Below, one piece after another: positions 2 through 26,701 of a stretch of 64,000 nucleotides of DNA (its first letter is position 1; the number at the start of each line of letters is the position of its first letter). The notes under the pieces were generated by a model. The model had not been told where the DNA came from, did no database searches, and saw only the letters and a program-made list of their open reading frames with translations. The translations under genes were made by a program, and so were the position numbers. The stretch lies in the NCBI GenBank assembly GCA_045659905.1, contig JAZRCT010000039.1, positions 8,331 through 72,330 of the forward strand. Reading direction: 5' to 3'. The stretch comes from Eubacteriales bacterium (GTDB taxonomy: Bacteria; Bacillota; Clostridia; Oscillospirales; CAG-272).

Positions 2-1708
2 GGCAAGTGGGTCAAGCGAGGCGGTAGGCTCGTCCATTATGAGGATATCCGATTCCTTAAAGAAGGCTCGGGCAACCGAGAGCTTTTGCCACTCGCCACC
101 CGAAAGCTCAATTCCATCCTCCTCGAAAAGACGGGTAAGAGGCGTATCGAATCCAAATGGAAGCTTCTTAATATAGTCAATAGCGCCCGCTCTTTCGGCG
201 GCAAGAGAAATATTCTCTCTCGAATACTCACAGTCCACGTCGCCGAAGCGGATATTTTCGTCAGCCGTATCGGCGTACTTTCCAAAATCCTGAAAAATGA
301 TGCCGTACATATCGTAAAGCTTCTTGGTGTCGTACTCACGAATATCAATTCCATCAAGCAAAATTACTCCCTCGGTCGGGTCGTAAAGCCTTGTAATCAG
401 CTTGACCAGCGTAGATTTTCCTGCGCCGTTAAGTCCGACGAGGATCACGCTTTGTCCCGTCTTCAGTGTCAGGCTAAGATTGTTGATTACGTTTTTCTGA
501 CTGCCGGGATATCTGAAGCTAACGTTGCGAAGCTCTATCGTATGCGCTTTTCCTCGACCGGGCTCTTTCGGCTCGTCAAGAAGCGGCACGACGGTAGTAG
601 GCTCTTTCATAAAATCTATCATATTTTCTATGAAAAGCGTTCCTTCATAAATTGTAGCGGTTGCAGTAACCAGCGTGCTGACGTAGGAAGAAATTGAGGT
701 AAGCGCACCGGTATAAAGCGAGTAATCACCGATTTCGCCCTTGCCTGTAACCACGTTATACGCTACGTATACAAAAAGCCCCGTGCTCGCTAAAACCGTA
801 AGCAGGCTTACAAGCACCTGCGACATACCCTCACGTATGATTATACGCTTAAGTCCTTTATAATATTTGCCGAATGCGCCCTTATACTTTTCGGTAAAGG
901 TATCGCCAAGAGATAAAAGCTTTACCTCCTTCGCATAATCCTTGTTGGTCATTATTGACGAATAATAATTCATCTTGCGGCGCTCTTTTGAGTGTCTGCG
1001 TATGTAATTAAAGCTACGATTTTTATAATAATAGTTTACAAAAGCGCCCGGGATTGAAACGACTATAATTATCAATGGGGCATAGGGACTTAGGGTTGCA
1101 AGAACTACGATAAACGAAACTACCGATATTACCGCACTTATTACTTTAAAGGTTGCACTTAGAATGCCTATCGGACGCATTCCCGCTTCTCTATTGGCAT
1201 TTTCAAGCTTCTCATAGAACGACGGACTGTCAAAGGAGCGCTGGTCTACCGTCTTTGCCTTGGTGATTATCATAAGCTTTATATGATTCACGACAAGCTC
1301 GCCTGCAATCGCAGTCACCATCGAGTTAATTTTTGCAAGCACTCGTTTCAAAAAGTGATGTATCATCTGAAGTAAGAACAAGAACAGCACGGGAGAAAGC
1401 AGCTTAAAAACGCTCTCGCCGTACGCAGCGCCGCCATCCTGAATTAGCTTTGCTATGCCGTTAAGAAGCTCACTCGAAATATAAGCGCCGATAACGGGCA
1501 ACAAACCGTCAAGCAGGCAAAAAAGCGATAAGGCTATCAGCACAAGAGGCGATGCCTGCCAGACTAATCCGATTATATAAAAAAGTCTTGTGAAAAATCC
1601 TCTTACTTTTTTGTATAAATACAAAGGAAGCTCTTTAAGCCGCTTTGGCTTTGGCACTCCATCGCCGCCGGGCTTTTTCATAGGCGGCATACCCATAGGA
1701 ATCTGCAT
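2..1708 (-). CDS. ABC exporter, fused permease/ATPase (3'-partial, runs off the window start; missing from the ORF track)
   Basis: Manual translation from ATG at 1708 (GGAGAG RBS): MQIPMGMPP..., TM domain, Walker A VGLNGAGKST, signature ELSGGEWQ, Walker B ILIMDEPT. Confidence 0.92.
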   Translation of the reverse strand, partial: MQIPMGMPPMKKPGGDGVPKPKRLKELPLYLYKKVRGFFTRLFYIIGLVWQASPLVLIALSLFCLLDGLLPVIGAYISSELLNGIAKLIQDGGAAYGESVFKLLSPVLFLFLLQMIHHFLKRVLAKINSMVTAIAGELVVNHIKLMIITKAKTVDQRSFDSPSFYEKLENANREAGMRPIGILSATFKVISAVISVVSFIVVLATLSPYAPLIIIVVSIPGAFVNYYYKNRSFNYIRRHSKERRKMNYYSSIMTNKDYAKEVKLLSLGDTFTEKYKGAFGKYYKGLKRIIIREGMSQVLVSLLTVLASTGLFVYVAYNVVTGKGEIGDYSLYTGALTSISSYVSTLVTATATIYEGTLFIENMIDFMKEPTTVVPLLDEPKEPGRGKAHTIELRNVSFRYPGSQKNVINNLSLTLKTGQSVILVGLNGAGKSTLVKLITRLYDPTEGVILLDGIDIREYDTKKLYDMYGIIFQDFGKYADTADENIRFGDVDCEYSRENISLAAERAGAIDYIKKLPFGFDTPLTRLFEEDGIELSGGEWQKLSVARAFFKESDILIMDEPTASLDPLA

Positions 1709-1863
1709 AAAACTCTCCATTCTGTCATAAATACGACCGCAGTTTAAAAGATATTTTTAGAAAAAGGCTTGTACATCAACCTAAATTTACGAAAGTAAAG
1801 AGCGCTTTACGATAAAAATGCGCTTAAGCTTAAATTGAAGCAGATATCAAGGACGAAAAGTAA

Positions 1864-2469
1864 CTACTTTAACTTTTTAAAGCCCGACCAAAGTAAAATT
1901 ATAAGCTCTGCGGGTATTCCAAGAATAAATATGAGCCAAAGATTATGCCCTAAAGCATAATAAAGCGTCATATAAACCGTCAAAAGCAACGTCCATACCA
2001 TAACCGATATAATAAGATAATTAAGTCGGCGCAAGCCCCATATTGAATTAAATATGAGTAAAACCGTAAAGGCTGCGGGAATTGCGTAAATAAACACAAG
2101 CCAAGACGGTATTTGCGAATCGGGAAGAGATATATTAAGCTCAACGAACAAAAAGGTAGCAACAAACCACACTAAGAAAAATGCAAGTCCTGTAATAATA
2201 AAATTATTGCGCTTCGTTGCACGTGATTTATTTCTGCGCTTTTCGTCATAATCCTGATGCTCGGCAGTGAGAAGATAATCAACCGTGACGCCAAAATAAT
2301 CTGCTATCTTTTTTAGCACGGTAACATCGGGAAGCGATTCTCCCCTTTCCCATTTTGAAACCGCCTTGTCAGAATAATTAAGTACCTGGGCGAGCTTCGA
2401 CTGAGTAATACCGTCTTCGCATCTAAGCTCGGATATGTTGTTTGCGATAATTTCACGAAGCTCCTTCAT
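1864..2469 (-). CDS. XRE-family HTH regulator with C-terminal multi-TM domain
   Basis: N-terminal Cro/C1 HTH (TQSKLAQVLNYSDKAVSKWERGESLPD) followed by about 4 hydrophobic helices. Confidence 0.9.
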   Translation of the reverse strand: MKELREIIANNISELRCEDGITQSKLAQVLNYSDKAVSKWERGESLPDVTVLKKIADYFGVTVDYLLTAEHQDYDEKRRNKSRATKRNNFIITGLAFFLVWFVATFLFVELNISLPDSQIPSWLVFIYAIPAAFTVLLIFNSIWGLRRLNYLIISVMVWTLLLTVYMTLYYALGHNLWLIFILGIPAELIILLWSGFKKLK

Positions 2470-3852: not shown

Positions 3853-4524
3853 ATGAACATTCCAAAGACAACAGAGCTTTTTGACCTCGAGCATACTCTG
3901 GCAAAGCCTTTGCTTATGAAATTTGAATCAGATGTGCCGTATCTTGCGCTTCCCTTGATTAAGGACTTTATTAAGGAGCTTCAAAAAACTCTCCCGCTTG
4001 ACGAATATGATGAAATTGACGACGGCGTGTTCGTGGCTAAAGGAGTGAAAATTCCAAAAACCGCAACGATAGAAGCACCCGTTATAATCGGAAAAAACAC
4101 AGAGATACGCCCCGGCGCTTACATAAGGAGCGCATCTCTGATAGGAGAGGGCGTTGTTGTCGGAAACAGTACGGAAATCAAAAACGCTATTATATTTGAC
4201 GGAGTGCAGATTCCTCACTACAACTACGTTGGAGATTCGATACTCGGATACAAATCGCATATGGGCGCAGGCGCTATCGCCTCGAATTTCAAGCTTGACG
4301 GTTCGAATATAAACGTAAGGACCGACGAGGGGCCTGTCGCTACGGGGCTTCGCAAGTTTGGCGTTATGCTTGGCGACCACGCAGAAGTAGGCTGCAACAG
4401 CGTGCTCTTTCCCGGTACGGTAGTAGGCAGAGGCTCTGCAATATATCCGCTCTCACGGGTGAGGGGCGTAATCCCGGAAAATCATATACTTAATATGGAC
4501 GGAAAGCTTATCAAAAAAAAATAA
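3853..4524 (+). CDS. Stand-alone GlmU-like hexapeptide acetyltransferase (no uridylyltransferase domain)
   Basis: Hexapeptide repeats, PHYNYVGDSILG...GAGAIASN; directly upstream of glmM. Confidence 0.78.
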   Translation: MNIPKTTELFDLEHTLAKPLLMKFESDVPYLALPLIKDFIKELQKTLPLDEYDEIDDGVFVAKGVKIPKTATIEAPVIIGKNTEIRPGAYIRSASLIGEGVVVGNSTEIKNAIIFDGVQIPHYNYVGDSILGYKSHMGAGAIASNFKLDGSNINVRTDEGPVATGLRKFGVMLGDHAEVGCNSVLFPGTVVGRGSAIYPLSRVRGVIPENHILNMDGKLIKKK

Positions 4525-23400: not shown

Positions 23401-25141
23401 TCTCGTCCGCCTCCTTTGCGCCCTCTGTCTGTCCCTCGTAAACCTCTTTGTAAATTTCAGAGGTAGAAAGAAGCTCCTCGTGCTTTCCTGCGGCAACGAG
23501 CCTTCCACCGTCGAGCACCAAAATCATATCCGAATCCATAACCGAGGAAATGCGCTGGGCTATTATTATCTTCGTGGTCTCGGGAATGAACTCCGAAAGC
23601 CCTTTTCTTATTTGTGCGTCGGTCTTCGTATCAACTGCGCTGGTCGAATCGTCAAGAATGAGTATTTTAGGCTTTTTGAGGAGTGCTCTTGCAATACAAA
23701 GTCTCTGCTTTTGTCCGCCCGACACGTTTGTGCCGCCCTGCTCTATTTTGGTGTCGTAGCCGTCGGGGAAGGAGGAAATAAAGCTATGCGCCTCGGCAAG
23801 CTTGCAGGCTTCTGTCATTTCTTCGTCGGTTGCGTTCTCGTTACCCCATTTCAGATTTTCCTTGATTGTGCCTGAAAAGAGCAAATTCTTTTGTAAGACT
23901 ACCGACACCTCCTTGCGGAGCGAATCTATATCGTAGCGCTTTACGTCGACACCGCCGACCTTAACACAGCCAACGGTAGCATCGTAAAGGCGGGATATCA
24001 GGCTTACTAGGGTGGTTTTGCTTGAGCCGGTTCCTCCGATTATACCAACGACAGCACCCGACGGAATGTGGATATTTATATCGGAAAGCGCATATCTGTC
24101 CGCCATAGCGCTGTATTTGAAGCTTACGCCCTCAAAGTCGACCGAGCCGTCCTTTACCTCGTATATTGGGTTATCACAGTTTTTAAGTGCGGTTTCCTCG
24201 GTAAGCACCTCGTTTATACGCTTAAAGGATTCTGTTGACATCGTAATTATTACGTATATCATAGAGAGCATCATAAGCGACATAAGAATCTGCATACCGT
24301 AGGTAAGCATTGCAGAAATCTGTCCTACGTCGACGCCGCTCGTCCCCTCAATTGCCATTTTAGAGCCTACGAAAAGCACGAATACCATATTGAAATAAAG
24401 GCAAATCTGCATAAGCGGCGTATTTAGCGCTACTATTCGCTCTGCCTTGGTAAAATCACGCTTTATATCCTCTGCCGCCTCGTTGAACTTCTGCTTTTCG
24501 TATTCCTGCCTTGAAAAGCCCTTTACTACCCTGACGCCTCGGACGTTTTCCTCAATAGATTCATTTAAGCGGTCATACTTTTTAAAGACGCTGCGGAATG
24601 CCGGCATCGCCTTTTTAGCGATAACGAGCAGTCCGAATACGAGCACGGGAACTACTACTACAAAAGTGCCTGCAAGTCCGCCGCCCATAACGTACGCCAT
24701 AACTATTGAGAATATGAACATAAGTGGGCTTCTTACCGCTGTTCTTATTATCATCATATACGACATTTGCGCATTATGGACGTCGGTGGTGAGTCTAGTA
24801 ACCAGCGAGGTTGAGGAAAATTTATCTATATTTTCAAACGAATAGGTCTGAATTTTAGAAAACAAATCCACTCTCAAATTCTTCGCAAAGCCCGACGCCG
24901 CCTTTGCACTCGTAAAGCCTGCCACTCCTCCGCAAGCAAGCGAAAGCAGCGCCATTACAATAAGAAGCACGCCGGTAGACAGAACCTCGGAATAATCCGT
25001 GCCGCTCTTTATTTTATTTACTAAATTGGCAGTGATAAAGGGGATAAAGGTCTCTATCGCAGCTTCCCCCACCATAAGAATGAGGGTAACTATACTAAGA
25101 GCCTTGTATTCTCTTACGCTGCCAAGCAAGCGCTTAAGCAT
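23393..25141 (-). CDS. ABC exporter subunit with degenerate nucleotide-binding site (heterodimer partner)
   Basis: GGTGSSKT, VSGGQKQ, ILDDSTSA (Asp at catalytic Glu), AQRISS (Gln at switch His). Confidence 0.93.
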   Translation of the reverse strand: MLKRLLGSVREYKALSIVTLILMVGEAAIETFIPFITANLVNKIKSGTDYSEVLSTGVLLIVMALLSLACGGVAGFTSAKAASGFAKNLRVDLFSKIQTYSFENIDKFSSTSLVTRLTTDVHNAQMSYMMIIRTAVRSPLMFIFSIVMAYVMGGGLAGTFVVVVPVLVFGLLVIAKKAMPAFRSVFKKYDRLNESIEENVRGVRVVKGFSRQEYEKQKFNEAAEDIKRDFTKAERIVALNTPLMQICLYFNMVFVLFVGSKMAIEGTSGVDVGQISAMLTYGMQILMSLMMLSMIYVIITMSTESFKRINEVLTEETALKNCDNPIYEVKDGSVDFEGVSFKYSAMADRYALSDINIHIPSGAVVGIIGGTGSSKTTLVSLISRLYDATVGCVKVGGVDVKRYDIDSLRKEVSVVLQKNLLFSGTIKENLKWGNENATDEEMTEACKLAEAHSFISSFPDGYDTKIEQGGTNVSGGQKQRLCIARALLKKPKILILDDSTSAVDTKTDAQIRKGLSEFIPETTKIIIAQRISSVMDSDMILVLDGGRLVAAGKHEELLSTSEIYKEVYEGQTEGAKEADENE

Positions 25142-25297
25142 AAAAAAATCTCCATTTTCCTGAATTTCAGGATAATTATACCATTGCAAAATGGCAAAGT
25201 CAACTAAATATTTTAAACATTTCCCCTAATATTCTTTTCCATATAGGACGAAATAATCAAGGTTAGATTTATTTTAACAAAAAAATAAAAAATAGCC

Positions 25298-25326
25298 TTG
25301 ACAAACCTACATTTTTCGAGTATAAT
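25298..25326 (+). promoter_or_regulatory. sigma-A promoter of tRNA-Trp
   Basis: Perfect TTGACA-N17-TATAAT. Confidence 0.85.
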
Positions 25327-25338
25327 ATTACGGTACAC

Positions 25339-25414
25339 AGGGGTATAGCTCAGTTGGTAGAGTACTGGTCTCCAAAACCATGGGTCGTGGGTTCGAGTCC
25401 TTCTGCCCCTGCCA
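25339..25414 (+). tRNA. trnW: tRNA-Trp (anticodon CCA)
   Basis: 76 nt, AGGGGTA/TGCCCCT acceptor stem, D-arm AGCTCAGTTGGTAGAGT, anticodon loop CTCCAAA, TTCGA T-loop, encoded CCA end. Confidence 0.97.
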
Positions 25415-25449
25415 AAAAAATCGGCAAGTTTCGACTTGTCGATTTTTTT
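25415..25449 (+). terminator. Intrinsic terminator of tRNA-Trp
   Basis: TCGGCAAGT-TTCG-ACTTGTCGA followed by T7. Confidence 0.85.
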
Positions 25450-25623
25450 ATCCAAGCCGCAGGCTTGGTATGGCATCACGCCTTAGCGTGTATGTAATCG
25501 CCAAAGGCGCATGGCATCACCAAAGGTGCATTTTCTGCGGCTTGATTCCATACGATTGCTTTGCAATCAATTCCATACCGCAACAAGTTGCGGATTCCAT
25601 ACACGCCTTACGGCGTGATTTGC
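25450..25623. repeat. Two-armed array of short hairpins joined by TATGG(A/C)AT linkers (REP/BIME-like, family unrecognised)
   Basis: Seven C...G-closed hairpins; linkers TATGGCAT, TATGTAAT, CATGGCAT on the left and ATTCCATA x3 (the reverse complement) on the right. Confidence 0.75.
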
Positions 25624-25714
25624 TACGTGGGTTTAAGTAAAAATATATATTTCAAGGAAGGCACAAGAAGCTTTACCGATTGCTTAATTAGAAATTTTAG
25701 AGAAAGGGGCTTAT

Positions 25715-26701
25715 ATGCGAGAGCTTAAAATATCTAAAAACGATGCAGGTCAGCGCCTCGATAAATTTATAACCAAAACGCTCGATTTGCCTATGAGCCT
25801 GCTCTATAAATCTATACGCTTAAAGAAAATCAAGGTCAACCGCAAGCGAGCCGAGGTCGGTATGATGCTTTGCGAGGGGGACACGGTTCAGTGCTTTTTG
25901 GCGGAGGAATTTTTCGAGCGCGGCAAGAAGAACGGCGAAGAAAATACAAGGCTCTCACAGCGTGAGCTTTCGTCTATAAGGTCAAAGCTTAATATAGTTT
26001 ACGAAGACGAGAATATAGCTTTGATAAACAAGCCTGTCGGACTTTCGGTGCACGAAGACGAAACGAGCAAGAAAAACACGCTTATTTCATACCTTCAAAG
26101 CTATCTTTACGAAAAGGGTGAATATAATCCAGACAAAGAGCAATCCTTTGCCCCTGCGCTTTGCAACAGACTTGACCGAAACACGGGCGGCATAGTTATT
26201 GCCGCAAAGAATGCCGAAGCGCTCAGGGTAATGAATGAAAAAATCAAGCAAAGAGAGATTGATAAATTCTATCTTGCGGCGGTTCACGGCACGCCGTCAC
26301 CCAAGGAGGCCACACTCAAGGGATATCTTCTTAAGGACGAAAAAAGCAATACGGTAAGAGTGTACGACAAAAATCCTCCAAAGGCCGCTAAGGAAATTAT
26401 AACGAAATACAAGGTTATTGCGACGTCAGGGGGCATATCGCTTATCGAGGTAGAGCTGCTTACAGGCAGAACGCATCAGATAAGAGCGCATATGGCGCAT
26501 ATCGGGCATCCGCTTCTCGGCGACGGCAAATACGGCAAAAATAAAGCAGACCGAGAGCTTGGCTACAAGCATCAGGCTCTTTACTCGTACAAGCTGAGAT
26601 TTTCGTTTAAAAATGATACCAAGAGTGCGCTTGACTATCTTGATGGCAAGGAATTCTCCGTCTCAAAGAAGGATATTTATTTTACAAAGGAATTCTTTTA
26701 A
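25715..26701 (+). CDS. RluA-family pseudouridine synthase with S4 domain (RluC/D type)
   Basis: QRLDKF S4 start, catalytic NRLDRNTGG, TGRTHQIRAH, PLLGDGKYG. Confidence 0.94.
   Translation: MRELKISKNDAGQRLDKFITKTLDLPMSLLYKSIRLKKIKVNRKRAEVGMMLCEGDTVQCFLAEEFFERGKKNGEENTRLSQRELSSIRSKLNIVYEDENIALINKPVGLSVHEDETSKKNTLISYLQSYLYEKGEYNPDKEQSFAPALCNRLDRNTGGIVIAAKNAEALRVMNEKIKQREIDKFYLAAVHGTPSPKEATLKGYLLKDEKSNTVRVYDKNPPKAAKEIITKYKVIATSGGISLIEVELLTGRTHQIRAHMAHIGHPLLGDGKYGKNKADRELGYKHQALYSYKLRFSFKNDTKSALDYLDGKEFSVSKKDIYFTKEFF

Follow-up and report, generated by a model that had tools for sequence, protein, structure and literature searches.

A dispersed family of hairpin-linker arrays behind tRNA genes of gut and rumen Oscillospirales, related to the Gut-1 motif and in some copies accompanied by PF05635 genes

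The window analysed here comprises 64,000 nucleotides (nt) of an Eubacteriales bacterium of the order Oscillospirales (assembly GCA_045659905.1, contig JAZRCT010000039.1, positions 8,331 to 72,330; contig C39 in the following, from a genome of 1.77 Mb in 58 contigs). Behind its tRNA-Trp gene, the window carries an array of seven small hairpins and six linkers of 8 nt (25452-25617). This array belongs to a family of non-coding repeats which is a sister of the orphan Rfam motif Gut-1 and is patchily distributed in uncultured gut and rumen Oscillospirales. According to the interpretation that we favour, and in which our confidence and our doubt are about equal, the window array is a solo (gene-less) copy of an element linked to tRNA 3′ ends, and its linkers are predicted multivalent binding words for a four-helix-bundle protein of the PF05635 family. 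Searches of the accessible literature yielded no paper that describes such arrays or connects them with PF05635.

A direct check of the window confirmed all six linkers that had been listed, with position and sequence, in a first-pass annotation made from the sequence alone. The seven hairpins that were described there as perfect are likewise all present at their sites, but the closing pair of one of them, H5, is C-A. On the plus strand, the array opens with H1 (CCAAGCC-GCA-GGCTTGG, 25452-25468), which is the most conserved hairpin and the signature of the family. In the left arm (25469-25534, plus strand), the linkers L1 (TATGGCAT, at 25469), L2 (TATGTAAT, at 25491) and L3 (CATGGCAT, at 25510) alternate with H2 (CACGC-CTTA-GCGTG, 25477-25490), H3 (CGCC-AAA-GGCG, 25499-25509) and H4 (CACC-AAA-GGTG, 25518-25528), the latter being followed by a truncated word, CAT, and by TTT. 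The centre, CTGCGGCTTG (25535-25544, plus strand), is the reverse complement of the 5′ arm and loop of H1 (25453-25462), so that the proposed complementarity holds at 10 of 10 positions. The right arm (25545-25620, minus strand) contains three copies of ATTCCATA (R1, R2 and R3, at 25545, 25570 and 25594 in plus-strand reading), together with H5 (25553-25569), H6 (25578-25593) and H7 (25602-25617), and ends with ATT. ATTCCATA is the reverse complement of TATGGAAT, and on the minus strand the right arm reads H7′ - TATGGAAT - H6′ - TATGGAAT - H5′ - TATGGAAT, which is the grammar of the left arm. The two arms thus face each other, as had been noticed before.

The hairpin pattern of the window exceeds chance. 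Folding of both strands results in a z-score of about -4.3, with none of 200 shuffled sequences folding as well. The word TATGGMAT occurs seven times in the window, and four of these occurrences cluster within 133 nt. In a related strain, with flanks that are about 96% identical, the array has been kept at the tRNA-Trp locus with 7 differences in 423 nt.

Between the tRNA and the array is a further hairpin, H0 (25414-25451, plus strand), an inverted repeat which consists of an A-run, a hairpin (stem 25421-25429/25434-25442, loop TTCG) and a T-run followed by AT. From its sequence, the part with A-run, hairpin and T-run (25414-25449) is predicted to be a bidirectional, intrinsic-terminator-like hairpin. 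The array had been described as lying outside the tRNA terminator. It does begin 2 nt past it, but in relatives the terminator hairpin is part of the repeated unit, and this unit starts right after the encoded CCA of tRNA-Trp.

The standard form of the family is H0 - AT - H1 - (word - hairpin) x3 - truncated word - centre - (word′ - hairpin) x3-4 - ATT, and 87 of the 99 members that could be parsed show the architecture of H1 plus three hairpins. A C..G clamp is found in about 90% of the hairpins, stems have mostly 4-8 bp and loops mostly 3-4 nt, and among 343 distinct hairpins 95% of the stem positions are Watson-Crick pairs. A non-circular check is possible when segments are defined by their flanking words alone. 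Of the segments between two linker words, 57% form a hairpin in which, starting from the very ends, 4 or more Watson-Crick pairs follow each other without interruption, compared to 0.7% after shuffling. All stems are different within the window copy, as stated initially, but the family as a whole uses a limited, recurring repertoire which drifts by compensatory changes. The stem of H1 covaries (variants GCC/GGC, TCC/GGA, GTC/GAC and ACC/GGT), and its loop is always GNA. Throughout the family, both arms of H1 (5′ and 3′) and the centre covary three ways, and this includes the base of the H1 loop that pairs with the centre. We also considered an invertible switch that would operate via the inverted repeat of the H1 half and the centre; this was rejected because a flipped form was found neither in any locus nor in the genome.

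The consensus TATGG(A/C)AT that had been given for the linker does not hold for the whole family, whose word is YAT-NNN-AT, with nearly invariant flanks and a middle triplet for which ATC, GTA and GGA/GGC are the main types. The same annotation had suggested an 8-nt guide; a guide next to one conserved hairpin is not supported. The linker is the constant part, and it is the hairpins that vary. Within one element, 2.3-2.5 of the 3 bases of the middle triplet agree, whatever arm or register is compared, while the value is 1.57 between elements. Left and right linkers do not show register-specific covariation (2.41 of 3 bases in the nested register versus 2.39). As the nested register is no better than the others, the linkers are copies of one word and not specific helix partners. 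This, together with an equally high agreement within each arm, led us to reject a rod of stacked four-way junctions (L1:R3, L2:R2, L3:R1). A CsrA-type GGA sponge was also rejected, since other family members carry ATC or GTA words without GGA.

The suggestion that the array represents an uncharacterised, dispersed and non-coding repeat family has been borne out. There are four copies in the genome itself, on contigs C39 (the window), C53, C31 and C21, and all four directly follow the terminator of a different tRNA (Trp, Arg-CCG, Leu-CAA and Cys). The C31 copy is shortened, and the C53 copy has a broken H2 and H4, with H7 showing a compensatory change (CACGGC/GCCGTG versus CACGCC/GGCGTG in the window). 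By BLAST, the element was found in 23 of 41 relatives, with 1-13 copies per genome and lengths that vary in a modular way. Arrays occur in 35 of 301 genomes and in 20 of 152 genera of an evenly drawn sample of Oscillospirales (1-15 copies each), while the reversed-pattern control gave 0. An H1-based pattern matched at least 120 DNA stretches from GTDB species representatives; among the matches listed, all are from gut or rumen metagenome-assembled genomes (MAGs) of Acutalibacteraceae, Oscillospiraceae, Ruminococcaceae or 'Eubacteriales'. A single array match among 2.9 million viral contigs leads us to reject carriage by phages.

The enrichment at tRNA 3′ ends, for which a test had been suggested, was also found. 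More than half of the assessable copies (58%, 71 of 123) start 27-45 nt after the 3′ end of a tRNA or transfer-messenger RNA (tmRNA), always in the same orientation, and the tRNA-linked copies cover more than 30 anticodons. Many of the copies that are not adjacent to a tRNA are second units, located 150-500 nt further downstream. In the tables of relatives and of the order sample, numerous copies have a contig end at a distance of at most a few hundred bases. It seems that MAG assemblies break at tRNA loci because of these repeats, which is of practical relevance and may hide gene-bearing copies.

In 17 of about 134 family copies, an open reading frame of about 115 codons directly follows the right arm. 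The copy on C21 is of this type: behind tRNA-Cys, its array (1179-1395) is followed by a gene for a protein of 121 residues (1416-1781), which reaches 65 bits with PF05635 and 68 bits with TIGR02436. Both this protein and a paralogue encoded on C24 are above threshold. The AlphaFold model of the C21 protein (mean predicted local distance difference test score 94.7) matches the structures 2RLD, 2GSC and those of Avd (4DWL and 8UB7) with template modelling (TM) scores of 0.74-0.82. The closest solved relative is 2RLD (BT_0352, 33% identity, function unknown), and 2GSC is Xcc0516. All four entries contain several chains, up to A-E. The model thus predicts that the C21-type protein is an Avd-like four-helix bundle, probably of the pentamer type if it resembles its solved relatives. 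It did not match any anti-phage defence annotation in PADLOC. The nuclease partner that had been expected for the array was not found in this position; the gene that actually accompanies the arrays codes for this PF05635 protein.

The C24 paralogue is 43% identical to the C21 protein and is encoded directly downstream of another mirror array, which is of the Gut-1 type (C24:33807-34400, minus strand) and contains GTGAAGTT four times and then AACTTCAC five times. This array follows a protein-coding gene instead of a tRNA. In relatives, at least 25 of 30 PF05635 loci have an array upstream, and the array words in front of the various paralogues are clade-specific (ATGTAAT/ATGGAAT, ATATCAT, ATATCAC, ATATCGC, ATTTCAC, ACTTCAT and others). 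Within the window family, linkers of the ATC type go with the 'REANYGQSK' protein clade in 9 of 9 cases, and GTA/GGA linkers go with the 'SEAQYPQSL' clade in 8 of 8 cases. In the two best-sampled genomes, all solo arrays agree in type with the resident gene: G028 has one gene and 12 arrays, all of the GTA type, while G085 has at least 13 arrays, all of the ATC type, and genes of the ATC clade. A cognate gene is present in 15 of 23 genomes with arrays, but in only one of 18 genomes without them.

The two arms differ in the strand on which they carry their characteristic signals. On the plus strand, the left arms have 49 GNA and 6 TNC triloops as well as 18 GNRA and no TYNC tetraloops, while the right arms have 2 GNA and 72 TNC triloops as well as no GNRA and 11 TYNC tetraloops. 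TNC and TYNC loops on the plus strand correspond to GNA and GNRA loops on the minus strand. The mismatches follow the same trend: the left arms have 32 of the G.T type and 13 of the A.C type, the right arms 11 and 24, respectively (Fisher p = 6e-4). Each arm therefore bears the grammar C-stem-GNA/GNRA-stem-G plus YATNNNAT on its own strand, running 5′ to 3′ toward the centre. Mini-hairpins of the d(C-GNA-G) type are exceptionally stable. With arm signatures on opposite strands, one RNA that spans both arms is hard to reconcile. The asymmetry suggests either that DNA is read, in the form of single strands or extruded hairpins, or that there are convergent transcripts. Convergent transcripts would be unexpected because the gene downstream of an array is usually co-directional (59 co-directional versus 24 convergent, n=83, a split that we judge to be ordinary, with no background rate computed); this applies to every four-helix-bundle gene.

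Across the genus, the cassette of tRNA-Cys, array and gene has 77-82% nucleotide identity and about 90% amino-acid identity, compared to 64-69% for the neighbouring housekeeping gene rlu. Judged by these identities, the cassette has the appearance of a locus that is inherited vertically and kept by selection. Solo copies show a different behaviour. The window copy shares 92% identity with the array behind tRNA-Arg(ACG) of another species and 90% with the C53 copy. Within a genome, copies behind different tRNAs hardly differ in the types of H1 and linker, in their set of hairpins or even in the H0 sequence. One and the same H0 sequence occurs in G085 after five different tRNAs and also at internal cassette junctions, and tandem duplicates in G028 include H0. 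This sharing of H0 behind different tRNAs makes the terminator hairpin part of the copied unit, and points to a spread or homogenisation of this unit within genomes. Islands behind tRNAs are found in some genomes, where [H0 + array], promoter and small gene form tandem units (L020 on contig C37 of G003, 560-2460, minus strand; L213-L219 in G085). Their cargo is unrelated between units and includes DUF3916, an ADP-ribosylglycohydrolase, a methyltransferase, NTP_transf_2, DUF4288 and orphans. Just before the internal H0 units is a conserved motif of about 50 nt with two direct repeats (TACTTTTAGTCG...).

We infer from these observations that the repeated words would be exposed as single strands between rigid mini-hairpins, which would act as spacers, and would form multivalent sites for a ring-shaped four-helix-bundle protein. 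The alternative that had been offered in the first-pass annotation, a multivalent protein-binding scaffold of RNA or single-stranded DNA, is the best fit to the data. As the nucleic acid that is read, single-stranded or extruded DNA would be more likely than one RNA. The complex may mark the site at which the element was copied in behind tRNA genes, joined in some genomes by whole cassettes of small genes. Complete "master" copies carry the PF05635 gene, and the window copy, having no gene of its own, would be a platform for binding or a relic. A precedent for the proposed binding of words is provided by the ribonucleoprotein of diversity-generating retroelements (DGRs), where all five Avd protomers contact one RNA stem-loop via flipped-out bases (bioRxiv 10.1101/2023.10.23.563531).

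Several observations weigh against this interpretation. Solo arrays coexist with a gene of mismatched type in G008, G024 and G026, and there are solo arrays without a cognate gene in G006, G011, G017, G021 and G031; all eight genomes are MAGs and may be incomplete, so that neither mismatch nor absence is decisive. That linker type and protein clade go together is also what physical linkage of gene and array would by itself predict. Calculations of nearest-neighbour energies fail to reproduce the strand asymmetry, as the differences are about 0.3 kcal/mol and have the opposite sign under DNA parameters; which strand folds is thus assigned by loop identity and the excess of G.T-type mismatches alone. 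In C21-type cassettes there is no promoter between array and gene, and the array may be an mRNA leader, which may favour a reading at the RNA level for at least the left arm. For the copying itself, we found no empty site, target duplication or recombinase, recombinases not having been searched systematically. A MITE or another derivative of a DDE transposon would be expected to have terminal inverted repeats, a target-site duplication, and filled and empty sites. In this genome, none of the four copies has a visible duplication at its ends, and the arms are inverted in grammar only and not in sequence. At the junction of the tRNA-Trp gene and rlu, no empty allele was found: the rlu orthologues in 28 genomes of the same genus lack tRNA-Trp upstream, synteny breaks at the tRNA, and the related strain is filled as well. 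At the tRNA-Gly/Arg(ACG) locus, which is filled in G019 and array-less in G000, homology stops at the tRNA and the boundary is unreadable.

The most direct competitor is an element that functions as RNA, i.e. a structured RNA which arises by read-through of the terminator and serves as a stable 3′ trailer, as a decoy, or as an autoregulatory 5′ leader of the four-helix-bundle mRNA. We consider this rather unlikely, although several points speak for it. Gut-1, which has the same grammar, has been catalogued as an RNA and has a bona fide copy in tRNA sense behind tRNA-His in this genome; the ligand of Avd is an RNA stem-loop (bioRxiv 10.1101/2023.10.23.563531); GNRA loops and G.U-type wobbles of the left arm suit an RNA of tRNA sense; and the C21-type gene, having no promoter of its own, implies transcription through the array from the tRNA promoter. 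Judged by the sequence, read-through from a 12/12 consensus tRNA promoter into the C21-type gene is likely. Contigs from metatranscriptome runs join the tRNA end, terminator and array, and also span the junction of array and gene leader. However, the depth profile of the arrays in the RNA runs mirrors that in DNA metagenomes and single-copy flanks are uncovered, so that DNA carry-over is possible and these contigs cannot show transcription. In the right arm the signature is the complementary one, with UNC loops and an excess of A.C; this arm is thus optimised on the opposite strand, which is mostly without a gene or promoter to transcribe it, as 59 of 83 downstream genes are co-directional. 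The position of the array 2 nt after a strong A-run/hairpin/T-run terminator and the lack of register-specific linker covariation, which argues against a helix of left and right linkers, also speak against this explanation. It is comparably doubtful that the arrays (window family, Gut-1 and their sisters) serve as cis-acting sites for an undescribed cassette system that has its anchor at tRNA 3′ ends. In such a system, an Avd-like ring would read the 8-nt words of each arm on a different strand, the DNA being extruded or single-stranded, and would thereby mark the junction for the copying-in of units of terminator and array and of whole cassettes of small genes, in an integron-like manner but without an integron integrase. 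A related proposal, in which the folded array is an integron-like recombination site where a recombinase would insert small gene cassettes behind tRNAs, and the four-helix-bundle gene is merely frequent cargo or an accessory factor, has a small probability in our view. The islands with their unrelated cargo and the motif of about 50 nt ahead of internal H0s fit well, as do the conservation of structure rather than sequence, which resembles attC, and a taxonomic spread that is patchy with homogeneity inside a genome. Yet no recombinase was found that adjoins or co-occurs with the arrays, although no systematic search was made; no empty/filled pair, circular cassette or target duplication was seen; and most copies, including that of the window, are without cargo and are followed by ordinary housekeeping genes.

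Alternatively, the window copy could be the decaying remnant of a past cassette insertion or gene conversion, with hairpins that persist because the copy is young. Its lack of an adjacent gene, the mismatched closing pair of H5, the broken hairpins of C53, the shortened C31 copy and the solo arrays in genomes without a matching gene would agree with such a neutral relic, but we regard it as improbable given the retention of the array in the related strain, the compensatory changes that keep hairpins intact (H7 of C53, H1 variants) and the high proportion of Watson-Crick pairs across distinct hairpins. The first-pass annotation had itself proposed a repetitive extragenic palindromic (REP) or bacterial interspersed mosaic element (BIME) that is mobilised by a REP-associated tyrosine transposase (RAYT), a Y1-type HUH nuclease. 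Extragenic location, hairpins with a short conserved flank, inverted arms and a position behind terminators are common to both types of element. Nevertheless, this explanation is largely refuted and has next to no probability left. No Y1-HUH/RAYT genes flanked by the units were found, and the only PF01797 locus, with the sole Y1 transposase of the genome, is a frameshifted IS200-like copy with different hairpins of its own and no YAT-NNN-AT units nearby. There is no GTAG-type motif, the hairpins are short (11-17 nt) and variable in sequence, the genome has four copies and not hundreds, and the accompanying gene belongs to PF05635. The IS200-like copy is located at C37:4050-4405 and has two in-frame TGA codons; its flanking hairpins are unrelated to the arrays.

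Should the preferred interpretation, with linkers as binding words of a four-helix-bundle protein, be correct, the display of short recognition words between structural mini-hairpins would be novel, and so might be the route on which small accessory genes collect behind tRNA genes of abundant gut bacteria. Two orphans become testable together, namely the Gut-1-type arrays, which were catalogued in 2010 without a function, and the very large PF05635/TIGR02436 family ('four helix bundle'/23S rRNA intervening sequence protein), of which the DGR accessory protein Avd is the only understood member. The arrays are well suited for this by their defined grammar, their niche at tRNA 3′ ends, the presence of master and solo copies, and a protein clade that tracks the 8-nt word. 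If the cassette-system interpretation were true, it would provide a first function for PF05635 proteins outside DGRs and for the proteins of 23S rRNA intervening sequences.

In the window, the tRNA-Trp(CCA) gene is located at 25339-25414 on the plus strand (ARAGORN; 59.6 bits with the Rfam tRNA model). A promoter scan placed its promoter, TTGACA-17-TATAAT with 12 of 12 consensus positions, at 25298-25326 on the plus strand. The region 25169-25326 contains near-consensus promoters back to back, with a minus-strand TTGACT-17-TATAAT with TG extension that drives a divergent gene for a protein of 598 residues.

Other repeats occupy similar positions in this genome. Arrays with (G)AAATCC linkers are found behind tRNA-His, where the array is the bona fide Gut-1 copy, and behind tRNA-Leu(GAG), and an array with ATGAAGC linkers is found behind tRNA-Gln(TTG); their sites, taken together, are C12:~84900-85020, C32:~60-180 and C14:~4200-4330. 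Many tRNA terminators are followed by another structured element of about 90 nt, with a T-arm-like motif 'GGTTCGCAT(A/T)CC' and a CAAGC..GCTTG hairpin at the end. It occurs behind tRNA-Ser(GGA) on C12, tRNA-Val(GAC) on C39 (520-620 of the contig, outside the window), tRNA-Met on C54, tRNA-Gln(CTG) on C55, tmRNA on C14, tRNA-Lys on C19 and tRNA-Thr(CGT) on C48. At locus L087 (1700-2350), a tRNA, a Gut-1 array (GTGAAAT), a terminator and a YATNNNAT array follow each other in tandem, and at L136 an AATGATG/CATCATT array is located downstream of a four-helix-bundle gene.

Among known systems, REP/BIME and REPIN-RAYT elements of Enterobacteria and Pseudomonas are likewise extragenic palindromic units which occur in inverted pairs or clusters after operon ends, and REPIN-RAYT systems share the arrangement of one protein-coding master locus with many gene-less copies that are homogenised in the genome. 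REP/BIME units, however, have one conserved imperfect palindrome of 20-40 nt, a GTAG-like 5′ tetranucleotide and tens to hundreds of copies, while the window family has shorter and variable hairpins, a constant linker, few copies per genome, specificity for tRNA 3′ ends and no RAYT/HUH gene. BOX elements of Streptococcus pneumoniae (boxA-boxB(n)-boxC) are, like the window family, modular, structured, non-coding and dispersed, with a variable number of units, but their modules are sequence-conserved blocks of 45-59 nt without alternation of hairpins and linkers, without a link to tRNAs and without a dedicated protein gene. Integron attC sites also have conserved structure and variable sequence, being imperfect inverted repeats that bound tandem cassettes of small promoter-poor or orphan genes. 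In contrast to integrons, the arrays precede their genes and are anchored at a tRNA 3′ end instead of attI, and neither an IntI-type integrase nor R/L core boxes were identified, no recombinase search having been made.

On the protein side, Avd is a positively charged pentamer which grips a structured stem-loop with the same residues of several protomers (bioRxiv 10.1101/2023.10.23.563531). Avd is itself a PF05635 member, and the partner protein of the arrays has the same fold (TM about 0.75 to 4DWL/8UB7) at an identity of only 18-19%; DGR parts such as a reverse transcriptase or template and variable repeats were not noticed beside the inspected arrays, in which no search was aimed at them. 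The concept of a ring-shaped homo-oligomer that reads a regularly spaced, short single-strand word is the same in TRAP and the (G/U)AG repeats of the trp leader in Bacillus. TRAP is an 11-mer of beta-sheet fold with words of 3 nt, unstructured spacers of 2-3 nt and proven attenuation. In the window family the spacers are hairpins, and the words would be bound in a comparable manner.

The closest relative is Gut-1 (RF01706; Weinberg et al. 2010, PMC2864571), which was catalogued as an RNA motif and is listed in Rfam as one-armed and of unknown function. The Gut-1 covariance model has a gathering threshold of 50 bits. The array lacks an Rfam match: none was obtained at E<=10 for the window region 24800-26200, the Gut-1 model included, and the Gut-1 model did not match the window and C21 arrays (L001 and L171) at E<=1 either. 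Positive controls from the same genome were recognised, with 52.1 bits on C12 behind tRNA-His and 35.1 bits, which is below the threshold, on C24. The Gut-1 linker is GTGAAAT-like instead of YAT-NNN-AT, and the window family has its distinctive H1 and a complementary centre. By the covariance model the window array is thus not a Gut-1 element, but it shares the grammar and genomic niche of Gut-1. Both are strings of small variable hairpins with a constant short linker, from uncultured gut Clostridia and located behind terminators or tRNA genes, and Gut-1-type arrays also precede a PF05635 paralogue of their own (C24 in this genome, L190 and L192 in others).

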